Part shown: in pieces, positions 141 to 11,191 of the stretch
Layout of the letters: every line of letters begins with the position of its first letter
How positions within the stretch are numbered: the first letter of the stretch is position 1
DNA from: a virus
Direction: 5' to 3' (one strand)
Length of the DNA stretch: 11,191 nucleotides
Virus genome (UHGV): UHGV-1786984
Translations under genes and position numbers: made by a program
Notes under the pieces: model-generated
The model's input: only the letters and a program-made list of their open reading frames with translations
The model's database searches: none
What the model was told of the DNA's origin: nothing

Positions 141-386
141 CAGTGATGACGCTCAATCTCGTTGAAAAACAGCCAGCAGCTATGCGCCGGATAATTGGTA
201 AGCATCTGGCCGTCCCTCGCTGGCAGGAGACATGCGATTATTATAATCAGATGATGGAAGGAAATGACAGTGATGACGCTCAATCTCGTCGAAAAACAGC
301 CAGCAGCTATGCGCCGGATAATTGGCAAGCATCTTGCCGTCCCTCGCTGGCAGGAGACATGTGATTATTATAATCAGATGATGGAG
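133..386. repeat. Tandem direct duplication, period ~127 bp, two copies (about 133-259 and 260-386), 4 mismatches between copies
   Basis: Read directly: the string gaaatgacagtgatgacgctcaatctcgt...ttataatcagatgatgga occurs twice head-to-tail. Copies differ at 4 positions (gtt/gtc, ggt/ggc, ctg/ctt, tgcgat/tgtgat). The period is not a multiple of 3. Confidence 0.9.
137..364 (+). pseudogene. Duplicated 5' fragment of gene B: first ~41 codons of B, then out of frame to a stop at 362-364
   Basis: ATG at 137 (and in-frame ATG at 131) with SD-like GGAGGG at 124-129. The N-terminus MTVMTLNLVEKQPAAMRRIIGKHLAVPRWQETCDYYNQMM matches the downstream full-length ORF, then diverges (EGNDSDDAQSRR...) because the 127-bp repeat shifts the frame by +1. 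Confidence 0.4.
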
Positions 387-764
387 CGCGAACGGCTAAC
401 GGTTTGCTTTCATGCGCAGTTAAAACAACGTCACGCAACGATGCGTTTTGAAGAAATGAACGACGTCGAACGTGAACGGCTGGTTTGTGCAATTGATGAA
501 TTGCGTGGGGCATTCTCAAAACGCCGTCAGGTTGGCGCAAGTGAGTATGCATATATTAGTTTTTTAACAGTCAGTCAGCGTCGTACTTTATTTATGCATG
601 CCGGATTGACTGAAAAAGAATTCAACCAGCCATACTGGCGAATTAATGAAGAATTATGTTACTGGCGTGATGCTTTATTCCGTGCATTACGTGAATTATT
701 CAGCCTGTTTGAGTATGCACCGACAATTCTGACGTCGGTAAAACCAGAGCAATATCTGCATTAA
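264..764 (+). CDS. B: P2 gpB-like DNA replication protein (helicase-loader-type accessory protein), 166 aa
   Basis: Complete 166-aa ORF, matching the recalled length of P2 B. Position immediately upstream of the small-ORF cluster and gene A fits P2 early operon order. Sequence identity to P2 B is from memory, not computed. Confidence 0.7.
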   Translation: MTVMTLNLVEKQPAAMRRIIGKHLAVPRWQETCDYYNQMMERERLTVCFHAQLKQRHATMRFEEMNDVERERLVCAIDELRGAFSKRRQVGASEYAYISFLTVSQRRTLFMHAGLTEKEFNQPYWRINEELCYWRDALFRALRELFSLFEYAPTILTSVKPEQYLH

Positions 765-1578: not shown

Positions 1579-1850
1579 GTATTCGTATTGAAATTGGCGA
1601 ACGTTATGTCGTTACCAGTGACAGCTTTCAGTTTATTCTCCACGAGAAAAAGAGAGCGGAAAGCGGTAAAAACGCCGGTCAGGAATGGCTGGCAGTGGTT
1701 GGTTATTACCCGAAATTAAGCCAGCTCGTTTCCGGCCTGATGCATCACGATATTCTGACCGGAAGCGCAAAATCTTTTGCTGATTTAAACGCGCAGGTTG
1801 AGCAACTCAGCAAGCGTTGTTCAGAGGCTTTTGGCTCACATGGACGTTAA
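1575..1850 (+). CDS. Small early-operon hypothetical protein (P2 orf83-like by position), 91 aa
   Basis: ATG at 1575 with GGAGA upstream. Ends TAA 1848-1850, overlapping the proposed gene A start at 1840. Confidence 0.6.
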   Translation: MSIRIEIGERYVVTSDSFQFILHEKKRAESGKNAGQEWLAVVGYYPKLSQLVSGLMHHDILTGSAKSFADLNAQVEQLSKRCSEAFGSHGR

Positions 1851-4122
1851 AGCCTCCGGGCGTTTTGTCCCTCCGTCAGCATTTGCCGCAGGCACCGGTA
1901 AGACGTTTACCGGTGCTTATGCATGGAACGCGCCACGCGAGGCCGTCGGGCGCGAAAGACCCCTTACACGTGACGAGATGCGTCAGGTGCAAGGTGTTTT
2001 ATCCACGATTAATCGCCTGCCTTACTTTTTGCGCTCGCTGTTTACTTCACGCTATGACTACATCCGGCGCAATAAAAGCCCGGTGCACGGGTTTTATTTC
2101 CTCACATCCACTTTTCAGCGTCGTTTATGGCCGCGCATTGAGCGCGTGAATCAGCGCCATGAAATGAACACCGACGCGTCGTTGCTGTTTCTGGCAGAGC
2201 GTGACCATTATGCGCGTCTGCCGGGGATGAATGATAAGGAGCTGAAAAAGTTTGCCGCCCGTATCTCATCGCAGCTTTTCATGATGTATGAGGAACTCTG
2301 CGATGCATGGGTTGATGCGCATGGTGAAAAAGAATCGCTGTTTACGGATGAGGCGCAGGCTCACCTGTATGGTCATGTTGCTGGCGCTGCACGTGCTTTC
2401 AATATTTCCCCGCTTTACTGGAAAAAATACCGTAAAGGACAGATGACCACGAGGCAGGCATATTCTGCCATTGCCCGCCTGTTTAACGATGAGTGGTGGA
2501 CTCATCAGCTTAAAGGTCAGCGTATGCGCTGGCATGAAGCGTTACTGATTGCTGTCGGGGAGGTCAATAAAGACCGTTCTCCTTATGCCAGTAAACATGC
2601 CATTCGTGATGTGCGTGCGCGCCGCCAGGCAAATCTGGAATTTCTTAAATCGTGTGACCTTGAAAACAGGGAAACCGGCGAGCGCATCGACCTTATCAGT
2701 AAGGTGATGGGCAGTATTTCTAATCCAGAAATTCGCCGGATGGAGCTGATGAACACCATTGCCGGTATTGAGCGTTACGCCGCCGCAGAGGGTGATTTGG
2801 GGATGTTTATCACGCTGACCGCGCCGTCAAAGTATCACCCGACACGTCAGGTCGGAAAAGGCGAAAGTAAAACCGTTCAGCTTAATCACGGCTGGAACGA
2901 TGAGGCATTTAATCCAAAGGATGCGCAGCGTTATCTCTGCCGTATCTGGAGTCTGATGCGCACGGCATTCAAGGATAATGATTTACAGGTCTACGGTTTG
3001 CGTGTCGTCGAGCCACACCACGACGGAACGCCGCACTGGCATATGATGCTTTTTTGTAATCCACGCCAGCGTAATCAGATTATCGAAATCATGCGTCGCT
3101 ATGCGCTCAAAGAGGATGGCGACGAAAGAGGAGCCGCGCGAAACCGTTTTCAGGAAAAACACCTTAACCGGGGCGGTGCTGCGGGGTATATCGCGAAATA
3201 CATCTCAAAAAATATCGACGGCTATGCACTGGATGGGCAGCTCGATAACGATACCGGCAGACCGCTGAAAGATACTGCCGCGGCTGTTACCGCATGGGCG
3301 TCAACGTGGCGCATTCCGCAATTTAAAACGGTTGGCCTGCCGACAATGGGGGCTTACCGTGAACTACGCAAATTGCCTCGCGGCGTCAGCATTGCTGATG
3401 AGTTTGACGAGCGCGTCGAGGCTGCACGCGCCGCCGCAGACAGTGGTGATTTTGCGCTGTATATCAGCGCGCAGGGTGGGGCAAATGTCCCGCGCGATTG
3501 CCAGACTGTCAGGGTTGCCCGTAGCCCGTCGGATGACGTTAACGAGTACGAGGAAGAAGTCGAGAGAGTGGTCGGCATTTACGCGCCGCATCTCGGCGCG
3601 CGTCATATTCATATCACCAGAACGACGGACTGGCGCATTGTTCCGAAAGTGCCGGTCGTTGAGCCTTTGACTTTAAAAAGCGGCATCGCCGCGCCTCGGA
3701 GTCCTGTCAATAACTGTGGAAAGCTCACCAGTGGTGATACTTCGTTACCGGCTCCCACACCTTCTGAACACGCCGCAGCAGTGCTTAATCTGGTTGATGA
3801 CGGTGTTATCGAATGGAATGACCCGGAGGTCGTGAGGGCGCTCAGAGGTGCATTAAAACACGGTCGGAGAACGCCAAATCGTCAGCAAAGAAACGGAAGC
3901 TCGTTAAAACCACATGAAATTGCACCATCGGCCAGACTGGCCCGGTCGGAACGAATGCAAATTACCCGTATCCGCGTTGACCTTGCTCAGAACGGTATCA
4001 GGCCGCAGCGATGGGAGCTTGAGGCGCTGGCGCGTGGTGCGACCGTAGATTACAACGGGAAAAAATTTACGTATCCGGTCGCTGATGAGTGGAGTTGGTT
4101 TTATTGTTATTCAGAGCAATAA
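1840..4122 (+). CDS. A: Rolling-circle replication initiator endonuclease, P2 gpA family (HUH superfamily), ~760 aa
   Basis: Long ORF. HUH-type metal-binding motif in PHWHMMLF and a paired-tyrosine catalytic motif in YIAKYISKNIDGY (phiX174 gpA / P2 gpA class). First ATG is at 1840 (the track ORF starts at an upstream TTG at 1798); from 1840 the length is close to the recalled P2 A length. Ends TAA 4120-4122. Confidence 0.9.
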   Translation: MDVKASGRFVPPSAFAAGTGKTFTGAYAWNAPREAVGRERPLTRDEMRQVQGVLSTINRLPYFLRSLFTSRYDYIRRNKSPVHGFYFLTSTFQRRLWPRIERVNQRHEMNTDASLLFLAERDHYARLPGMNDKELKKFAARISSQLFMMYEELCDAWVDAHGEKESLFTDEAQAHLYGHVAGAARAFNISPLYWKKYRKGQMTTRQAYSAIARLFNDEWWTHQLKGQRMRWHEALLIAVGEVNKDRSPYASKHAIRDVRARRQANLEFLKSCDLENRETGERIDLISKVMGSISNPEIRRMELMNTIAGIERYAAAEGDLGMFITLTAPSKYHPTRQVGKGESKTVQLNHGWNDEAFNPKDAQRYLCRIWSLMRTAFKDNDLQVYGLRVVEPHHDGTPHWHMMLFCNPRQRNQIIEIMRRYALKEDGDERGAARNRFQEKHLNRGGAAGYIAKYISKNIDGYALDGQLDNDTGRPLKDTAAAVTAWASTWRIPQFKTVGLPTMGAYRELRKLPRGVSIADEFDERVEAARAAADSGDFALYISAQGGANVPRDCQTVRVARSPSDDVNEYEEEVERVVGIYAPHLGARHIHITRTTDWRIVPKVPVVEPLTLKSGIAAPRSPVNNCGKLTSGDTSLPAPTPSEHAAAVLNLVDDGVIEWNDPEVVRALRGALKHGRRTPNRQQRNGSSLKPHEIAPSARLARSERMQITRIRVDLAQNGIRPQRWELEALARGATVDYNGKKFTYPVADEWSWFYCYSEQ

Positions 4123-4238
4123 ACATCTGATTTAATTTGTTGCATAATAGTAAAATTGCTGTTTATCTACATGTGTTAACTATTGATAATTATGTTGCTA
4201 ATAATGTGTGCAAATTTATACTGAAAAAGGTGAAAACG
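4123..4238 (+). promoter_or_regulatory. AT-rich intergenic region upstream of the cargo module; likely holds its own promoter and RBS (AAGGTG 4227-4232)
   Basis: Abrupt shift to AT-rich sequence right after the gene A stop, with several -35-like and -10-like hexamers (ttgcat near 4140, gataat 4185-4190, tgctaataat 4196-4205). Exact -35/-10 pairing could not be fixed by eye. Confidence 0.35.
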
Positions 4239-5123
4239 ATGAATGATATCTTTGTTCTTACAAGGGAAGAGCTTGAAACACTAGATTATAGTGTTTTTAT
4301 GCATATACCAGTTACATTTCATGCACATAAAATAAAAAAATATCTGGATGGGATTGCTGAATCATCAGGAAACCCCAAAGAGAAAAAATTAGCATCTCTT
4401 TTTGGTATGCTATATAGTTTCAATTTGCAAGTTGTTAACAACACTCCATCATTTGAACCCCAAATGATTTGGGGTAATAAAAGATCAATATTGTCTGAAG
4501 ATTTTGATGAGCAGGTGAATGACTGTCTTTTATATGTTTCTCAAAAAATAACCAATCCATTTTTGTTATCAAGAATATATGATGTTGTTTGGTGTAATAA
4601 CCGGAAAAACAAAGACGTGGCAATTAAAGCAATTGATTCCTATGCTGAAATGCTAAATATAGCAATTGAAAAACTAATAATAAAAAACGAAAGCATGGAT
4701 GAAAGTGATTTAAATTGCTTTATTTTTGCTCGTGATTATATTGCTAGGGCTTTGCACATTAATAAAATGGTCTACCCTAGAAAATCAGAAGGAAACATGG
4801 CGATTAAAAATGCCATTCATTCTCTTTATAGTATTCAAAATGAAAGATTAATCTTTGAAGGTTTCAATAATTTGACTTGGTTTATGGTGCGTGATTTTGA
4901 TGGGTATAATCTGCAGTATGCGGAAAATGCTGAGAAGATGGCTGAGCAGCATAAAGATAAAAAATATTATGATGCTGTAAAATCACTTTATATGACAAGT
5001 GCAGTTATTTATGAAAAAATGGTGAGTATGAACGTGCCAAGAGATGTAAACTGGCATCTGCAAATATTACTATTAAAGTTGCAACAGATCGACCTGATAA
5101 TATGGGTAAGATCTCTTGGTTAA
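4239..5123 (+). CDS. Cargo gene 1: hypothetical protein of unknown function, 294 aa from first ATG; AT-rich, foreign composition
   Basis: First ATG at 4239 with AAGGTG 6 nt upstream; the track ORF starts at an in-frame TTG at 4137. Codon usage is A/T-rich, unlike flanking phage genes. No motif recognised by eye. Overlaps the next ORF by 22 nt. Confidence 0.7.
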   Translation: MNDIFVLTREELETLDYSVFMHIPVTFHAHKIKKYLDGIAESSGNPKEKKLASLFGMLYSFNLQVVNNTPSFEPQMIWGNKRSILSEDFDEQVNDCLLYVSQKITNPFLLSRIYDVVWCNNRKNKDVAIKAIDSYAEMLNIAIEKLIIKNESMDESDLNCFIFARDYIARALHINKMVYPRKSEGNMAIKNAIHSLYSIQNERLIFEGFNNLTWFMVRDFDGYNLQYAENAEKMAEQHKDKKYYDAVKSLYMTSAVIYEKMVSMNVPRDVNWHLQILLLKLQQIDLIIWVRSLG

Positions 5124-6070
5124 GAACAGCTATCTCTGAATTAAGACAGTATGGTGGTGATAGCCAACAGATAGAAGATTTAAAGGAACAACTTGCTAAT
5201 TTGAGAGAAGAAGTAAGGAGTGAATATGTCACTTTAAGCCATTCTATTGATATTAGTGACTTGGTTGCTGAAAGTGAAAAAAAACTGACGGGGCGTTCTT
5301 TGCCCGATATATTCAAAGTTTTAATGCGTGAAACACCGATTGAAAATATTGAAAGCATGAGGGAGCAAGTTTTAAGATTATCAGAAAAAAGTTTATTCTC
5401 TAGTTTTGTTGGAACAGAAATTAATGATGAGAGTGGGCGTAAGGTATATACAATCCCGCCGTTGAATAATAAAAAAGATATGAGTGATGATGTTGTTATT
5501 GATCAATATCTAAGAAATTTCGAGATTACTCATAAGATTTTTGTAAACGGTGTCTTTGAACCTGCTCGCTATGTACTTTCTCAAGAACATGGCTTGACGT
5601 TGTCAACATTCGTTAAATTAGTTACAACTAGTCCAATTGTCAAGCCGGAGTTTAGGGAGATTTTTAATTTGGGCTTTTACAAATTATGGCAGGGAGATTA
5701 CATCAGTGCAGCTTATCTTTTAATACCACAAATGGAAGGTATGGTTCGTTATTATTATGAGCTTAGTGGAAAGGATGCTACTAGATATTTGGATAAGGGA
5801 TTAGAGGAGTCAACAAGTATTTCTCAGCTTCTAGATAAATGCAGAGATGATTTGGAAAGTATCTTTTCTAAGAATCTTGTTTTAACTATCGATGTTCTTT
5901 TTAATAGAAAGAGTGGGGCAACCTTAAGACATAAATTAGCACATGGTAATTTATATACTAATGCTTGTTACGATGAAACAACGACATATGCATGCATCCT
6001 GATTTTCTTTCTGTGTGCTTATCCTCTCCTACCATATTTTGATACTGTATTTGAACAGGGCTCTGTTTGA
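5102..6070 (+). CDS. Cargo gene 2: hypothetical protein with C-terminal HEPN-like R-x4-H motif (candidate RNase/abortive-infection effector), 322 aa
   Basis: ORF from ATG 5102, in the -1 frame relative to cargo gene 1, no obvious SD. C-terminal ..NRKSGATLRHKLAHGNLY.. has Arg (5927-5929) and His (5942-5944) spaced R-x4-H as in HEPN (Abi_2/AbiD/AbiF-like) domains. Same AT-rich composition. May be a separate gene or the 3' part of a frameshifted single gene. Confidence 0.65.
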   Translation: MGKISWLRTAISELRQYGGDSQQIEDLKEQLANLREEVRSEYVTLSHSIDISDLVAESEKKLTGRSLPDIFKVLMRETPIENIESMREQVLRLSEKSLFSSFVGTEINDESGRKVYTIPPLNNKKDMSDDVVIDQYLRNFEITHKIFVNGVFEPARYVLSQEHGLTLSTFVKLVTTSPIVKPEFREIFNLGFYKLWQGDYISAAYLLIPQMEGMVRYYYELSGKDATRYLDKGLEESTSISQLLDKCRDDLESIFSKNLVLTIDVLFNRKSGATLRHKLAHGNLYTNACYDETTTYACILIFFLCAYPLLPYFDTVFEQGSV

Positions 6071-6221
6071 TAACGTATACGTTGAGGCATAAAACCTATG
6101 CATACTTAGCTGCATCAATTTGCACGAGGTATTTCAGTATGCATTTTCTGCGTAATAGTAGGGATTGCTTGGTTTGGTAGTTGTAATTCAACTGCATTCA
6201 AACCGACCCATGAAGCGGGCG

Positions 6222-6240: not shown

Positions 6241-6391
6241 TGCGCGCTGGCGGTGGTGCTGATTTTATTTTTTCAGCGTCTCAGCGCGTCGTAATGGCGT
6301 TTAGATTGTGCGCCGGGGCGTTGGTGTGTCTGCGGGCTGTTTTGTGCGGTGGTGAGCGTGTGAGGGCGTGATGACGGGATGTAAAAAAGCC

Positions 6392-6414
6392 TAAAAAAGC
6401 CGCCCGCAGGCGGC
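6392..6414 (-). terminator. Rho-independent terminator of the P-Q late operon
   Basis: On the - strand, 5 nt after the Q stop: GC-rich hairpin GCCGCC-TGCG-GGCGGC (plus 6399-6414) followed by a U-run (plus-strand A-run 6393-6398). Confidence 0.55.
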
Positions 6415-6419
6415 GATGT

Positions 6420-7454
6420 TCAGTCGTTGTCAGTGTCCAGTGAGTAGTTTTTAAAGCGGATGACCTCCTGACCGAGCCAGCCGTTTATCTCGCGGATCCT
6501 GTCCTGTAGCGGGATAAGCTCATTGCGGACAAAGACCTTTGCCACTTTCTCAATATCGCCCAGTGACCCGACGTTCTCCGGCTTGCCACCCATCAACTGA
6601 AAGGGGATGCGGTGTGCGTCCAGCAGGTCAGCGGCGCTGGCTTTTTTGATATTAAAAAAATCGTCCTTCGTCGCCACTTCACTGAGCGGGATAATTTTAA
6701 TGCCGTCGGCTTTCCCCTGCGGGGCATAGAGAAACAGATTTTTAAAGTTATTGCGGCCTTTCGACTTAACCATGTTTTCGCGAAGCATTTCGATATCGTT
6801 GCGATCCTGCACGGCATCGGTGACGTACATGATGTATCCGGCATGTGCGCCATTTTCGTAATACTTGCGGCGGAACAGCGTGGCCGACTCATTCAGCCAG
6901 GCAGAGTTAAGGGCGCTGAGATATTCCGGCAGGCCGTACAGCTCCTGATTAATATCCGGCTCCAGCAGGTGAAACACGGAACCGGGCGTGAAAGGTGTCG
7001 GCTCGTTGAAGGACGGCACCCACCAGTAAACATCCTCTTCCACACCACGGCGGGTATATTTTGCCGGTGAGGTTTCCAGTCTGATGACCTTACCGGTGGT
7101 GCTGTAACGCTTTTCCAGAAACGCATTACCGAACACCAGAAAATCCAGCACAAAGCGGCTGAAATCCTGCTGGGAAAGCCACGGGTGCGGGATAAACGTT
7201 GAAGCCAGAATATTACGTTTGACGTAAATCGGTGAGCTGTGATGCACGGCAGCACGCAGGCTTTTTGCCAGACCGGTAAAGCTGACCGGCGGCTCATACC
7301 ATCTGCCGTTACTGATGCATTCGACGTAATCCAGAATGTCACGGCGGTCGAGTACCGGCACCGGCTCACCAAAGGTGAATGCCTCCATTTTCGGGGCGCT
7401 GGCAGTCATTGTTTTTGCCGCAGGTTGCGGTGTTTTCCCTTTTTTCTTGCTCAT
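6420..7454 (-). CDS. Q: Portal protein, P2 gpQ family, 344 aa
   Basis: 344-aa ORF on - strand (MSKKKGKTPQPAAK...), matching recalled P2 Q length and its position next to cos. Start ATG (7452-7454) overlaps the P stop by 1 nt (TGATG). Confidence 0.9.
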   Translation of the reverse strand: MSKKKGKTPQPAAKTMTASAPKMEAFTFGEPVPVLDRRDILDYVECISNGRWYEPPVSFTGLAKSLRAAVHHSSPIYVKRNILASTFIPHPWLSQQDFSRFVLDFLVFGNAFLEKRYSTTGKVIRLETSPAKYTRRGVEEDVYWWVPSFNEPTPFTPGSVFHLLEPDINQELYGLPEYLSALNSAWLNESATLFRRKYYENGAHAGYIMYVTDAVQDRNDIEMLRENMVKSKGRNNFKNLFLYAPQGKADGIKIIPLSEVATKDDFFNIKKASAADLLDAHRIPFQLMGGKPENVGSLGDIEKVAKVFVRNELIPLQDRIREINGWLGQEVIRFKNYSLDTDND

Positions 7455-9226
7455 CAGTAAAACTCCAGAATGGTGGATGTCAGCGGGGTGCTGATACCTG
7501 CGGTGAGTGGCTCATTTAACAGGGCGTGCATGGTCGCCCAGGCGAGGTCGGCGTGGCTGGCTTCCTCGCTGCGGCTGGCCTCATAGGTGGCGCTGCGTCC
7601 GCTGCTGGTCATGGTCTTGCGGATAGCCATAAACGAGCTGGTGATGTCGGTGGCGCTGACGTCATATTCCAGACAGCCACGGCGGATAACGTCTTTGGCC
7701 TTGAGCACCATTGCGGTTTTCATTTCCGGCGTGTAGCGGATGTCGCGCGCGGCGGGATAGAACGAGCGCACGAGCTGGAACACGCCGACACCGAGGCCGG
7801 TGGCATCAATACCGATGTATTCGACGTTGTATTTTTCGGTGAGTTTGCGGATGGATTCCGCCTGAGTGGCAAAGTCCATGCCTTTCCACTGGTGACGCTC
7901 AAGTATTCTGAATTTGCCACCGGCCACCACCGGCGGTGCCAGCACCACGCATCCGGCGCTGTCGCCACGGTGTGACGGGTCGTAACCAATCCATACCGGG
8001 CGGGAGCCGAACGGATTCGCGGCAAACGGCGCATAGTCTTCCCATTCTTCCAGCGTGTCGACCATGCAGCGTTGCAGCTCCTCGAACGGGAACACCGACG
8101 CCTTGTCGTCAACAAATTCACACATGAACAGGTTTTTAAAATCGTCGGCGCTGTTTTCACGTTTGAGCTGCTCAATGTCGAACAGCGTGCAGCCGCCTTT
8201 CAGGGCGTCCTCAATGGTGACAATCTGCCGCCACTGGCCGTCCGCACAGAGAAGCCCGCTGGCAAGGGCGTTATGACTGACGTCGATTTCCACACGTTCG
8301 GCGGCGCTGGCGCGTCCCCGGTTGAACAGTTCACCCGACCAGAACGGGTAGGCGTCGTGCGCCAGCGTGGACGGGGTGGAGAAATAGGTCGAGCGCAGGT
8401 GACTCTGTGAGGCCATACCTGATGCCACCTTACGCAGTACCTGAAAATTCGGGATCCAGAAAATCTCGTCGACGTACAGGTCGCCGTTATGGCTCTGTGC
8501 GGTGTTGGAGTTGGTGCCGAGAAAAATCAGTTTTGCGCCGTTATTGCCCAGGACAATCGGGTCACCGGTCAGGTCAACGTCAACCAGCCGGGCAAAGGCG
8601 ATGATGTATTCGCGGAACACATACGCCTGCGTTTTACTGGCCGACAGAAAAATCTGGTTATGACCGGTTTTCAGGGCGCGCAGCAGCGCCTCGCGGGAAA
8701 AATAAAACGTCGCGCCAATCTGGCGGGATTTCAGGATATCGCGGATGCGGTGCTCAAGCCCGGCGCGATACCAGTGCAACTGATATTCGAAAGACTGCTC
8801 AAAGAAAATCTGCTCCAGCTTTTCGATGGCCTCGTCACTGAAAAAATTCTTTTTCGGTTTGCGACGCCCGCCTTTGTTGCGGTTAGCGACGTTCGGATTA
8901 AGGTCTGCCTCGTTGCCGGTCTGACTGTAGCGGTTTACCCGTGCCAGTCGTTCAATCTGGCGTCCGAGCAGGTCAATTTCCTTGAAGTCACCGCCGGTTT
9001 TCTGCGGTTTGATGATGAGCTGGGTCAGCCGCGCTTCCAGGCTCATTTCGACACGGCTGATGGGGGCAACGCTGTCCCAGCCGTCGCGCTGTTTCCAGCT
9101 CTGCACCGTCGGGCGTTTCATCTGCAACATGGCGGCAATCTGCGGCACGGAAAATCCCTGCCAGTACAGCAGCGCCGCCTGACGACGCGGGTCGTGTAAA
9201 AGAGTGGTGTCTGTGGTGATGGTCAT
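7454..9226 (-). CDS. P: Terminase ATPase (large) subunit, P2 gpP family, 590 aa from ATG at 9224-9226
   Basis: Long - strand ORF upstream of Q. First ATG gives MTITTDTTLLHDPRRQ... with GAGG-containing SD upstream; the track ORF extends 10 codons further to a non-ATG start. Length fits recalled P2 gpP. Confidence 0.9.
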   Translation of the reverse strand: MTITTDTTLLHDPRRQAALLYWQGFSVPQIAAMLQMKRPTVQSWKQRDGWDSVAPISRVEMSLEARLTQLIIKPQKTGGDFKEIDLLGRQIERLARVNRYSQTGNEADLNPNVANRNKGGRRKPKKNFFSDEAIEKLEQIFFEQSFEYQLHWYRAGLEHRIRDILKSRQIGATFYFSREALLRALKTGHNQIFLSASKTQAYVFREYIIAFARLVDVDLTGDPIVLGNNGAKLIFLGTNSNTAQSHNGDLYVDEIFWIPNFQVLRKVASGMASQSHLRSTYFSTPSTLAHDAYPFWSGELFNRGRASAAERVEIDVSHNALASGLLCADGQWRQIVTIEDALKGGCTLFDIEQLKRENSADDFKNLFMCEFVDDKASVFPFEELQRCMVDTLEEWEDYAPFAANPFGSRPVWIGYDPSHRGDSAGCVVLAPPVVAGGKFRILERHQWKGMDFATQAESIRKLTEKYNVEYIGIDATGLGVGVFQLVRSFYPAARDIRYTPEMKTAMVLKAKDVIRRGCLEYDVSATDITSSFMAIRKTMTSSGRSATYEASRSEEASHADLAWATMHALLNEPLTAGISTPLTSTILEFY

Positions 9227-9399
9227 GAATACCTCGCCGTGATGAATACACGGCAAGGCTACTGAGTCGCGCCCCGCGATTCGCTAAGGTGCTGTTGTGT
9301 CAGTGATAAGCCATCCGGGACTGATGGCGGAGGATGCGCATCGTCGGGAAACTGATGCCGACATGTGACTCCTCTAATCACTATTCAGGACTCCTGACA
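9227..9399. promoter_or_regulatory. Divergent intergenic region between P (-) and O (+); expected site of the two late promoters (activator-dependent in P2)
   Basis: 173-bp gap between divergent late operons, as in P2. An exact TGT-N12-ACA activator dyad was searched by eye and not found, so element positions are unresolved. Confidence 0.4.
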
Positions 9400-10149
9400 A
9401 TGGCAAAAAAAGTCTCAAAATTCTTTCGTATCGGCGTTGAGGGTGACACCTGTGACGGGCGTGTCATCAGTGCGCAGGATATTCAGGAAATGGCCGAAAC
9501 CTTTGACCCGCGAGTCTATGGTTGCCGCATTAACCTGGAACATCTGCGCGGCATCCTGCCTGACGGTATTTTTAAACGTTATGGCGATGTGGCCGAACTG
9601 AAGGCCGAAAAGATTGATGACGATTCGGCGCTGAAAGGCAAATGGGCGCTGTTTGCGAAAATCACCCCGACCGATGACCTTATCGCGATGAACAAGGCCG
9701 CGCAGAAGGTCTACACCTCAATGGAAATTCAGCCGAACTTTGCCAACACCGGCAAATGTTATCTGGTGGGGCTGGCCGTCACCGATGACCCGGCAAGCCT
9801 CGGCACGGAATACCTGGAATTCTGCCGCACGGCAAAACACAACCCCCTGAACCGCTTCAAATTAAGCCCTGAAAACCTGATTTCAGTGGCAACGCCTGTT
9901 GAGCTGGAATTTGAAGACCTGCCTGAAACCGTGTTCACCGCCCTGACCGAAAAGGTGAAATCCATTTTTGGCCGCAAACAGGCCAGCGATGACGCCCGTC
10001 TGAATGACGTGCATGAAGCGGTGACCGCTGTTGCTGAACATGTGCAGGAAAAGCTGAGTGCCACTGAGCAGCGCCTCGCTGAGATGGAAACCGCCTTTTC
10101 CGCACTTAAGCAGGAGGTGACTGACAGGGCGGATATGACGAACTGCTGA
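9400..10149 (+). CDS. O: Capsid scaffolding protein, P2 gpO family, 249 aa from ATG 9400
   Basis: ATG 9400 (MAKKVSKFFRIGVEGDT...) with AGGA at 9387-9390. The track ORF starts at the upstream in-frame ATG 9334, which has no spacer after its SD-like sequence. Position between P and N fits P2 order. Ends TGA 10147-10149. Confidence 0.8.
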   Translation: MAKKVSKFFRIGVEGDTCDGRVISAQDIQEMAETFDPRVYGCRINLEHLRGILPDGIFKRYGDVAELKAEKIDDDSALKGKWALFAKITPTDDLIAMNKAAQKVYTSMEIQPNFANTGKCYLVGLAVTDDPASLGTEYLEFCRTAKHNPLNRFKLSPENLISVATPVELEFEDLPETVFTALTEKVKSIFGRKQASDDARLNDVHEAVTAVAEHVQEKLSATEQRLAEMETAFSALKQEVTDRADMTNC

Positions 10150-10207: not shown

Positions 10208-11191
10208 ATGCGCCAGGAAACCCGCTTTAAATTTAATGCCTACCTGTCCCGTGTTGCCGAGCTGAACGGCATCGACGCCGGTGATGTGTCGAAAAAATTC
10301 ACCGTTGAACCGTCGGTCACCCAGACCCTGATGAACACCATGCAGGAGTCCTCTGACTTTCTGACCCGCATCAACATTGTGCCGGTCAGCGAAATGAAAG
10401 GGGAAAAAATTGGTATCGGTGTCACCGGCTCCATCGCCAGCACCACCGACACCGCCGGTGGCACCGAGCGTCAGCCGAAGGACTTCTCGAAGCTGGCGTC
10501 CAGTAAGTACGAATGCGACCAGATTAACTTCGATTTTTATATCCGCTACAAAACGCTTGACCTGTGGGCGCGTTATCAGGATTTCGAATGCGACCAGATT
10601 AACTTCGATTTTTATATCCGCTACAAAACGCTGGACCTGTGGGCGCGTTATCAGGATTTCCAGCTCCGTGTCCGTAACGCCATTATCAAACGCCAGTCCC
10701 TTGATTTAATCATGGCCGGTTTTAACGGCGTGAAGCGTGCCGAAACCTCTGACCGCAGCAGCAATCCGATGCTGCAGGATGTGGCGGTCGGCTGGCTGCA
10801 GAAATACCGCAATGAAGCCCCGGCGCGCGTGATGAGCAAGGTCACTGACGAGGAAGGCCGCACCACCTCTGAGGTTATCCGCGTGGGTAAGGGCGGTGAT
10901 TATGCCAGCCTTGATGCACTGGTGATGGATGCGACCAACAACCTGATTGAACCGTGGTATCAGGAAGACCCTGACCTTGTGGTGATTGTGGGGCGTCAGT
11001 TACTGGCGGACAAGTATTTCCCCATCGTCAACAAGGAGCAGGACAACAGCGAGATGCTGGCCGCTGACGTCATCATCAGCCAGAAACGCATCGGCAACCT
11101 GCCAGCGGTACGCGTCCCGTACTTCCCGGCGGATGCGATGCTCATCACGAAGCTGGAAAACCTGTCCATCTACTACATGGATGACAGCCAT
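10208..11191 (+). CDS. N: Major capsid protein, P2 gpN family; 5' partial (328 codons, runs off the window end)
   Basis: ATG 10208 with CAGGA upstream; frame open to the last base of the window (MRQETRFKFNAYLSRVAELNG...YYMDDSH). Absent from the ORF track because no stop lies in the window. Follows O as in P2. Confidence 0.85.
   Translation, partial: MRQETRFKFNAYLSRVAELNGIDAGDVSKKFTVEPSVTQTLMNTMQESSDFLTRINIVPVSEMKGEKIGIGVTGSIASTTDTAGGTERQPKDFSKLASSKYECDQINFDFYIRYKTLDLWARYQDFECDQINFDFYIRYKTLDLWARYQDFQLRVRNAIIKRQSLDLIMAGFNGVKRAETSDRSSNPMLQDVAVGWLQKYRNEAPARVMSKVTDEEGRTTSEVIRVGKGGDYASLDALVMDATNNLIEPWYQEDPDLVVIVGRQLLADKYFPIVNKEQDNSEMLAADVIISQKRIGNLPAVRVPYFPADAMLITKLENLSIYYMDDSH
10511..10660 (+). 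repeat. In-frame 75-bp tandem duplication inside gene N (2 copies, 1 synonymous mismatch), duplicating ECDQINFDFYIRYKTLDLWARYQDF
   Basis: Read directly: gaatgcgaccagattaacttcgatttttatatccgctacaaaacgct[t/g]gacctgtgggcgcgttatcaggatttc occurs twice head-to-tail (10511-10585, 10586-10660). 75 = 25 codons, in frame with N. Confidence 0.9.

Follow-up and report, generated by a model that had tools for sequence, protein, structure and literature searches.

A private 75-bp tandem repeat in a P2-type capsid gene joins two natural haplotypes and may be a false duplication

The window and its capsid gene

The window analysed here, the whole 11,191-nucleotide stretch of virus genome UHGV-1786984, spans the early-to-late junction of a P2-like (Peduovirus) prophage, from the replication gene B through a partial gene N (Table 1). 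According to the open reading frame map and annotated relatives, the position of N in the head module fits the P2 family, with the divergent pair Q-P followed by O-N, and the portal and large terminase genes are intact. The exact P protein of the window is present in 115 blocks of the collection and its exact B protein is likewise very common; an exact-protein look-up of the window gpA gave no match.

The N reading frame starts with an ATG and is still open at the window end, so that its final 54 codons lie outside; the full duplicated gpN would have 382 residues. Its product matches the Pfam family PF05125 (Phage_cap_P2) with 464 bits against a cut-off of 27, in a match that the duplication breaks into two stretches, and its DNA is about 98-99% identical to the P2 gene N and to prophage N genes. 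The canonical cluster representative that is the closest hit of the window gpN (P0002) matches the HK97-fold gpN of PDB 7jw1 with a phmmer E of 3e-236. Family match, identity and Q-P/O-N synteny thus bear out the assignment made in an earlier sequence-only reading, which had named the gene as N, a P2-type major capsid protein.

Table 1. Features of the window, with positions counted from its first letter
Feature	Position	Strand	Description	Basis
127-bp tandem duplication	133-259/260-386	+	4 nt upstream and codons 1-41 of gene B	
Gene B	264-764		replication gene	ORF map, annotated relatives
Gene A	1840-4122		760 aa	ORF map, annotated relatives
DUF7380 moron	~4137-6070			ORF map, annotated relatives
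10-bp tandem duplication	6382-6401		TAAAAAAGCC x2; T-tract, terminator-like hairpin downstream of Q	
Gene Q	6420-7454	minus	portal, 344 aa	ORF map
Gene P	7454-9226	minus	large terminase, 590 aa	ORF map
Gene O	9391-10149	+	scaffold/protease; carries private 105-bp in-frame deletion	
105-bp in-frame O deletion	junction 10134/10135	+	exactly gpO codons 246-280 lost	
Gene N	10208-11191	+	P2-family major capsid protein, partial	translation, Pfam, identity, Q-P/O-N synteny
Copy 1 of the 75-bp repeat	10511-10585	+	codons 102-126; T at 10558; second commonest natural unit allele	
Copy 2 of the 75-bp repeat	10586-10660	+	codons 127-151 of duplicated protein; G at 10633; commonest natural unit allele	
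Novel N junction, 10585/10586	10566-10605	+	...CAGGATTTC/GAATGCGAC...; 1 nt microhomology	

The 75-bp repeat

Tandem Repeats Finder reports the repeat at 10510-10660, with a period of 75, 2.0 copies, 98% matches, no indels and a score of 295. The two copies lie head-to-tail and are identical at 74 of 75 positions, an agreement between adjacent copies that excludes chance; their sole difference, T10558 against G10633, turns ctt into ctg, both leucine. The repeat is in frame and doubles exactly codons 102-126 of N, which encode ECDQINFDFYIRYKTLDLWARYQDF. Both the repeat finder and direct reading therefore agree with what had been described from the letters alone: an in-frame duplication of 25 residues, with the coordinates, 75-bp unit, peptide and ctt/ctg difference all correct.

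A single copy is the rule in relatives

How common is such a repeat? A query of 1,042 bases hit 116 phage records and 1,523 E. coli records, and the best matches listed all span 967 bases, which means one copy in those relatives. For the junctions themselves, a 70-bp query across the N junction proved uninformative, as single-copy genes match it as two joined pieces, and it was superseded by 40-mers centred on each junction, which seed no match unless the junction exists. The N-junction 40-mer has no match in 5,426 complete E. coli genomes or in 50,697 phage records, and an exact 24-mer over the junction (TATCAGGATTTCGAATGCGACCAG) has none in GTDB species representatives, IMG/VR or JGI metagenomes.

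The proteins give the same picture. All 80 IMG/VR loci fetched encode a single-copy gpN of 357 residues, and the extra 25 columns are empty in 81 of 81 aligned family proteins (70-98% identity). Without its extra copy the window protein is an exact and common E. coli gpN, found on 184, 129 and 24 contigs in a collection of about 15 billion proteins, according to three C-terminal tails; seven versions of the duplicated gpN are absent from the same collection. A single uninterrupted 102-126 segment is thus the family norm, as had been supposed, and the window gpN departs from it with a second copy of a strand and the start of helix alpha3 that is in no other family member examined. Relatives routinely carrying the same duplication were looked for, and every one examined has one copy. 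The uniform single copy, together with a junction found nowhere else, makes the duplication private to the window sequence.

A literature search on tandem duplications in capsid genes returned nothing relevant. Only one other in-frame tandem duplication within gpN was found, in an E. coli P2-like prophage (CP173567.1; P0001, 414 aa). It doubles another segment, 57 residues at about 190-246 that overlap the sir loop, and its two 171-bp copies are 100% identical within an otherwise intact O-N-M-L operon. In the window, by contrast, the copies differ in allele and O is damaged.

The repeated segment belongs to the capsid core

The structure of gpN has been solved in the P4 procapsid (PDB 7jw1) and has the HK97 fold (PMC7552001). 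In it, Glu102 and Lys64 make an inter-capsomer contact at the base of the E-loop, and the spine helix alpha3 is covered by the E-loop and N-arm of the neighbouring subunit (PMC7552001). An AlphaFold2 model of canonical gpN, of moderate confidence (pLDDT 67.6, pTM 0.67) and with a TM score of 0.65-0.82 against 7jw1, assigns residues 104-113 to a strand and 123-148 to the spine helix. Matched in this way to 7jw1, the duplicated segment is predicted to comprise the P-domain strand that follows the E-loop, a linker and the first turn of the spine helix.

Conservation points to the same kind of place. Thirteen of the 25 residues are invariant in 81 proteins (C103, Q105, N107, D109, F110, L117, D118, L119, W120, A121, R122, D125 and F126). 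Residues 23-158 have zero indels across the family, whose length varies only at 22, 159, 193-195 and in the C-terminal tail, and even phiRSA1, at 57% identity, has no gap in the duplicated region. Segment 102-126 is core sequence. The suggestion that it might sit in a tolerated surface loop fails, because over half of it is invariant, it lies in an indel-free zone and it maps to the P-domain strand and the beginning of the spine helix.

The 382-residue gpN is not expected to work as a capsid protein, whether it was joined in the cell or in silico. An AlphaFold2 model of the duplicated protein has a pLDDT of 35 and a pTM of 0.21, values given no weight here, as the last 54 residues were missing from the model.

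The two copies are two natural alleles

Among 83 natural loci, only position 48 of the 75-bp unit is commonly polymorphic, with G in 46 and T in 37; the remaining variable positions are singletons or doubletons. This is the position at which the two copies differ. The sequence of copy 1 occurs unchanged in 33 of the 83 loci and that of copy 2 in 40, and a random substitution after duplication would have had a chance of about 1/225 of producing that base at that site. Since the copies are the two major natural alleles, two templates or haplotypes contributed to the repeat. The synonymous difference had been taken as a sign that the repeat is not a simple read artefact. This argument does not hold: a difference that is standing polymorphism fits a false duplication well, and it excludes only a duplication followed by random point mutation.

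The flanks of the N junction hint at the same mixture. To its left the window is exactly S88-type for 168 bp, and the codon there for Ser99 (AGT) is rare, found in 2 of 84 loci, both with the T unit, while all 47 loci with the G unit have an Asn99 codon. From 10586 rightward the window is identical over 272 bp to a G-type locus (L053). The evidence for a haplotype switch at the N junction is no more than suggestive, as the flanks support it weakly and control positions show the sample to be too thin.

Further private changes in the window

The closest relatives of the window are the P2-like prophages of the S88 clade (E. coli S88, MS7163, N53 and N62; 98.9%). Compared base by base with S88 (98.9%) and KE50 (98.0%), the window has five length differences. 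One of them, the loss of one A (A7 to A6) near 5014, which shifts the frame of the DUF7380 gene, is natural, as it is common to two independent metagenome contigs, one of which (L012) is identical to the window at 100% over 2,175 bp, frameshift included.

The tandem duplication at the start of gene B resembles that in N. Its first copy has all five alleles of the cpxP-site prophage type and its second copy all five alleles of the S88 type. Positions 1-259 have one mismatch to the cpxP-site haplotype (L003-L010, L093) and five to S88, and positions 260-520 have one mismatch to S88 and seven to the cpxP-site type, so the haplotype switches exactly at the B junction (259/260). Searches for this junction in E. 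coli genomes, IMG/VR and JGI metagenomes gave no match. S88, KE50 and L011, an independent metagenome contig, all lack the 10-bp duplication downstream of Q. The sequence-only reading had overlooked the tandem duplication in B (133-386) as well as two more of the private junction changes.

The sequence around the O deletion is cleanly S88-type, with no haplotype switch. E. coli genomes, IMG/VR and GTDB representatives all lack the deletion junction, and the exact gpO lacking the 35 residues has no record in an exact-protein look-up. The window gpO covers only profile positions 1-234 of 268 in Pfam PF05929, and its scaffolding domain (195-284) is not intact. This C-terminal domain is needed for P2 procapsid assembly (PMC7552001).

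The four private junctions have little or no microhomology, 1 nt in N and 0 nt at the other three. The 75-bp change in N and the 105-bp change in O are both in frame and codon-aligned; two in-frame lengths would come from random joins with a chance of 1/9. Duplications or deletions of at least 10 bp are found in O-N in none of about 86 unselected natural loci, while the window itself carries two in O-N and another two upstream.

Population background

The S88 clade is itself defective: ISEc12 interrupts its N, and its int has a frameshift. It has the DUF7380 moron and an inactivated N in common with the window, but its N carries no duplication and its gpO has the full 284 aa, whereas the window gpO is shortened. 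The insertion site of ISEc12, an IS21-family element, corresponds to 10693-10697 of the window (5-bp target CCAGT), 33 bp downstream of the duplication. A link between the two is unsupported, as the differences in N between the window and S88 (10417, 10633, 10772 and 11000) are spread evenly.

Both haplotypes, S88-type and cpxP-site type, co-reside in strain N53, a double P2-like lysogen. At 237 sites that differ between the N53-type prophages, the window switches alleles 40 times and never has a third base. These switches might be taken to mark the window as chimeric, but most of the same blocks recur in L011 and the mosaic of the complete genome KE50 is just as fine, which means that these sites just have two alleles in a population that recombines heavily. 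The combination of zero private substitutions with four private indels was likewise considered as proof of an artefact. The four substitutions that appeared private are all present in other loci, and the argument is weakened by 33 of 88 natural loci that also have no singleton substitutions in O-N. What is unusual about the window after these controls is its structural load only.

Origin of the repeat

The 75-bp repeat is a join of two natural P2-like haplotypes, and neither slippage in a single genome nor a feature of the capsid family. The best reading, to which we give about an even chance, is a false duplication made by merging the two, and we infer that the joining took place in silico rather than in the cell. 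Two related P2-like prophages or strains in the sample would have overlapped by 75 bp that differ at the T/G site, and these overlapping sequences would have been set end to end, unmerged, to leave a 75-bp tandem. The 127-bp repeat in B would have the same origin, and the 10-bp duplication and the 105-bp deletion would be more join errors in the same repeated region. Several observations agree with this reading: the N junction is unique although the population is very heavily sampled, the copies carry alternative alleles and both B haplotypes co-occur in N53, four private junction changes cluster in 11 kb, and microhomology of 0-1 nt at all four is atypical of replication slippage. Vertebrate assemblies are the subject of a paper that reportedly treats false duplications, and the window resembles these in having two allelic versions of one segment in tandem. 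For bacterial assemblies, errors of tens to hundreds of bp have been documented, mostly indels and concentrated in genomic repeats (PMC8442456). The likeness there is to indel-type errors of that size at near-identical repeats, but the bacterial cases come mainly from circularisation or from the polishing of repeats, and are not specifically tandem joins of 75 or 127 bp with different alleles (PMC8442456).

Against a false duplication stands the behaviour of de Bruijn assemblers, which invent no junction k-mers, and no single assembler step can be named that gives both a 75-bp and a 127-bp overlap. That 127 is the largest default k of SPAdes was given no weight, as 75 does not fit the same assembly and overlaps in the graph would be identical. 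The changes in N and O are also in frame and codon-aligned, which random joins would give with a chance of only 1/9, a chimera finds no support in the window's fine mosaic of S/C alleles, and the duplication in CP173567.1 shows that such N alleles get deposited and may be real. Differing copy alleles could, moreover, arise in vivo by gene conversion, since tracts converted from a donor with one copy have to end at the duplication junction. The main competitor, which we consider a substantial possibility while leaning against it, is a real duplication made in the cell, either by illegitimate, homology-independent recombination between co-resident or co-infecting P2-like genomes, or as an older duplication that was converted in part by a single-copy relative. 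The prophage would then be head-defective, with 25 extra core residues in gpN and with gpO lacking residues 246-280 of its scaffolding domain, part of the domain (195-284) required in P2 procapsid assembly (PMC7552001). The clean frames of the N repeat and the O deletion speak for such an origin, as do an intact remainder of the module (Q 344 aa, P 590 aa, A 760 aa) and an underlying sequence that is natural, as the perfect match of L012 attests. Recombination among these phages is so intense that differing alleles are expected soon after a duplication, double lysogens such as N53 offer potential donors, and the nearest relatives are themselves defective. On the other side, a real origin needs four independent rare junction events in 11 kb, of a kind that about 86 natural loci lack in O-N, all four with next to no microhomology; the nonsense mutations and private substitutions that long decay would predict are missing; and the allele is never seen again in a very heavily sampled population. 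The suspicion that the insertion disables assembly and marks a defective prophage is plausible, and backed by the private 35-residue deletion in the gpO scaffolding domain.

Could the repeat be real and tolerated? The 25 residues might protrude as a new insertion from between the P-domain strand and the spine helix, in a capsid that still works and is perhaps altered, or the protein might act as a dominant-negative poison of superinfecting P2-like or P4 capsids on late-gene transactivation; we regard this as very unlikely. Both structural-gene changes do keep the frame, which chance would allow once in nine, and by geometry a fold using the strand of copy 1 and the helix of copy 2 may leave a 25-residue excursion with adjacent ends. 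HK97-fold proteins elsewhere do carry insertion domains, such as the I-domain of P22. Insertions of this type are conserved, independently folding domains at permissive sites. The window gpN resembles them in having extra polypeptide in the HK97 fold, but what it adds is a one-off repeat of an invariant core where the family length never varies. The invariant residues, the lack of indels at 23-158 in the family and in phiRSA1, the Glu102-Lys64 contact and the covered spine helix (PMC7552001) all argue against tolerance, and the extruded segment would be hydrophobic core sequence next to a gpO without much of its essential scaffolding domain. The allele has been seen only once, and the model of the duplicated protein collapsed (pLDDT 35), a result confounded by the missing C-terminus. 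That the 382-residue protein is biologically active, as a capsid gaining an insertion (perhaps co-adapted with the short gpO) or as a poison by which a defective prophage mounts an assembly-level defence against superinfecting P2-like phage or P4, strikes us as more doubtful still. Least probable, and almost certainly wrong, is simple replication slippage in one genome followed by a random synonymous mutation, the model implicit in the sequence-only reading. The copies are indeed tandem, head-to-tail and nearly identical, and the perfect 171-bp repeat in another E. coli N gene shows a comparable case. Slippage, however, would have had to place its one mutation at the only common polymorphic site and to the exact alternative allele (about 1/225), from endpoints that share 1 nt, and the sister duplication in B differs at five of five natural biallelic sites.

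Significance

Rather than a new capsid design, the duplication is an error of joining during sequence assembly or else a disabling change to a prophage that was already broken. Its biological weight is small, as a one-off in one of the best-sampled E. coli prophage genes, and its practical consequence is a quality flag: N, O and the start of B in UHGV-1786984 are suspect until reads confirm the junctions. As a general point, tandem copies that differ synonymously are no evidence against an artefact if the difference is standing polymorphism. If all four junctions are true, the window would document P2-like phages that recombined in nature, while co-resident, independently of homology, and its gpN would be a ready-made test of insertion tolerance at the base of the HK97 spine helix.

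Other changes in the capsid gene

The N gene of another E. coli P2-like prophage, that of CP173567.1, carries an in-frame tandem duplication as well, but of a different segment from the one in the window. Its unit is 171 bp, or 57 residues (about 190-246), with copies 100% identical; the duplicated residues overlap the Sid-responsiveness "sir loop", and the O-N-M-L operon is intact apart from this duplication. This duplication may be genuine or may stem from an error of assembly.

In the window's closest relatives, which include at least S88, MS7163, N53, N62, OkiPb01678, OkiPb01712 and OZ039827, N is split by ISEc12, flanked by a 5-bp target duplication (CCAGT). The insertion site lies only 33 bp downstream of the end of the window's N duplication, and no evidence was found for a causal link between the two. 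In S88 the integrase gene is disrupted as well, by a frameshift.

Location of the changes in the window and in other prophages
Feature	Location	Details
A7->A6 homopolymer deletion, DUF7380 moron gene	window ~5014	ORFs 4137-5123 and 5102-6070
Private 127-bp unit in two tandem copies, start of gene B	window 133-386	copies 96% identical
Private tandem duplication, 10 bp (TAAAAAAGCC x2)	window 6382-6401	perfect
Private 105-bp deletion, gene O (9391-10149)	junction 10134|10135	in-frame, codon-aligned
Tandem duplication, in frame, within N of E. coli CP173567.1 (protein P0001)	L094 3568-3908
ISEc12 (IS21 family) within N, E. coli S88 prophage	L001 13591-16173	site equivalent to window 10693-10697

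Private changes in the window

The deletion in the scaffold/protease gene O removes residues 246-280 of gpO (ETSQAFTRLKNSLDHTESLTQQRRSKATGGGGDAL), part of the C-terminal scaffolding domain. Its junction shows neither microhomology nor a haplotype switch, and the exact shortened protein has no match on record anywhere. At the start of replication gene B, the repeated unit comprises 4 nt upstream and codons 1-41; the duplication does not keep the reading frame, and copy 1 therefore yields a B' fusion ORF of 75 residues, running from the ATG at 137 to a stop codon that ends at 364. The fusion overlaps full-length B (264-764), which starts in copy 2 and is without its native GGAGGG ribosome-binding site. 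All five alleles of the cpxP-site prophage fall in copy 1 and all five of S88 type in copy 2. The 10-bp duplication, not found in S88, KE50 or metagenome contig L011, directly adjoins a hairpin (GCCGCC-CGCA-GGCGGC) that reads as the terminator of the minus-strand Q-P operon.

The N duplication (10511), the deletion in O (10134|10135) and the point where the B unit ends (259) all fall exactly on codon boundaries, an alignment with a chance estimated, post hoc, at roughly 1 in 100, and accounted for by neither selection nor assembly error. In contrast to the window's other changes, the deletion that breaks the 610-residue DUF7380 gene into two ORFs is natural: it recurs in two ENA metagenome contigs of independent origin, L011 (99.4% identical) and L012 (100% identical to window 3928-6102).

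A mosaic of two alleles

The whole window was compared with the S88-type prophage and the cpxP-site prophage of strain N53 (L093). At the 237 sites that distinguish the two co-resident N53 prophages, its alleles split 136/101 between them and switch 40 times, and a third base is never seen. Similar mosaics occur in L011 and the complete genome KE50. The P2-like prophages of E. coli thus behave like a population that recombines intensely and is almost entirely biallelic; substitutions private to one lineage are rare in it, with a median of 1 per 2 kb.
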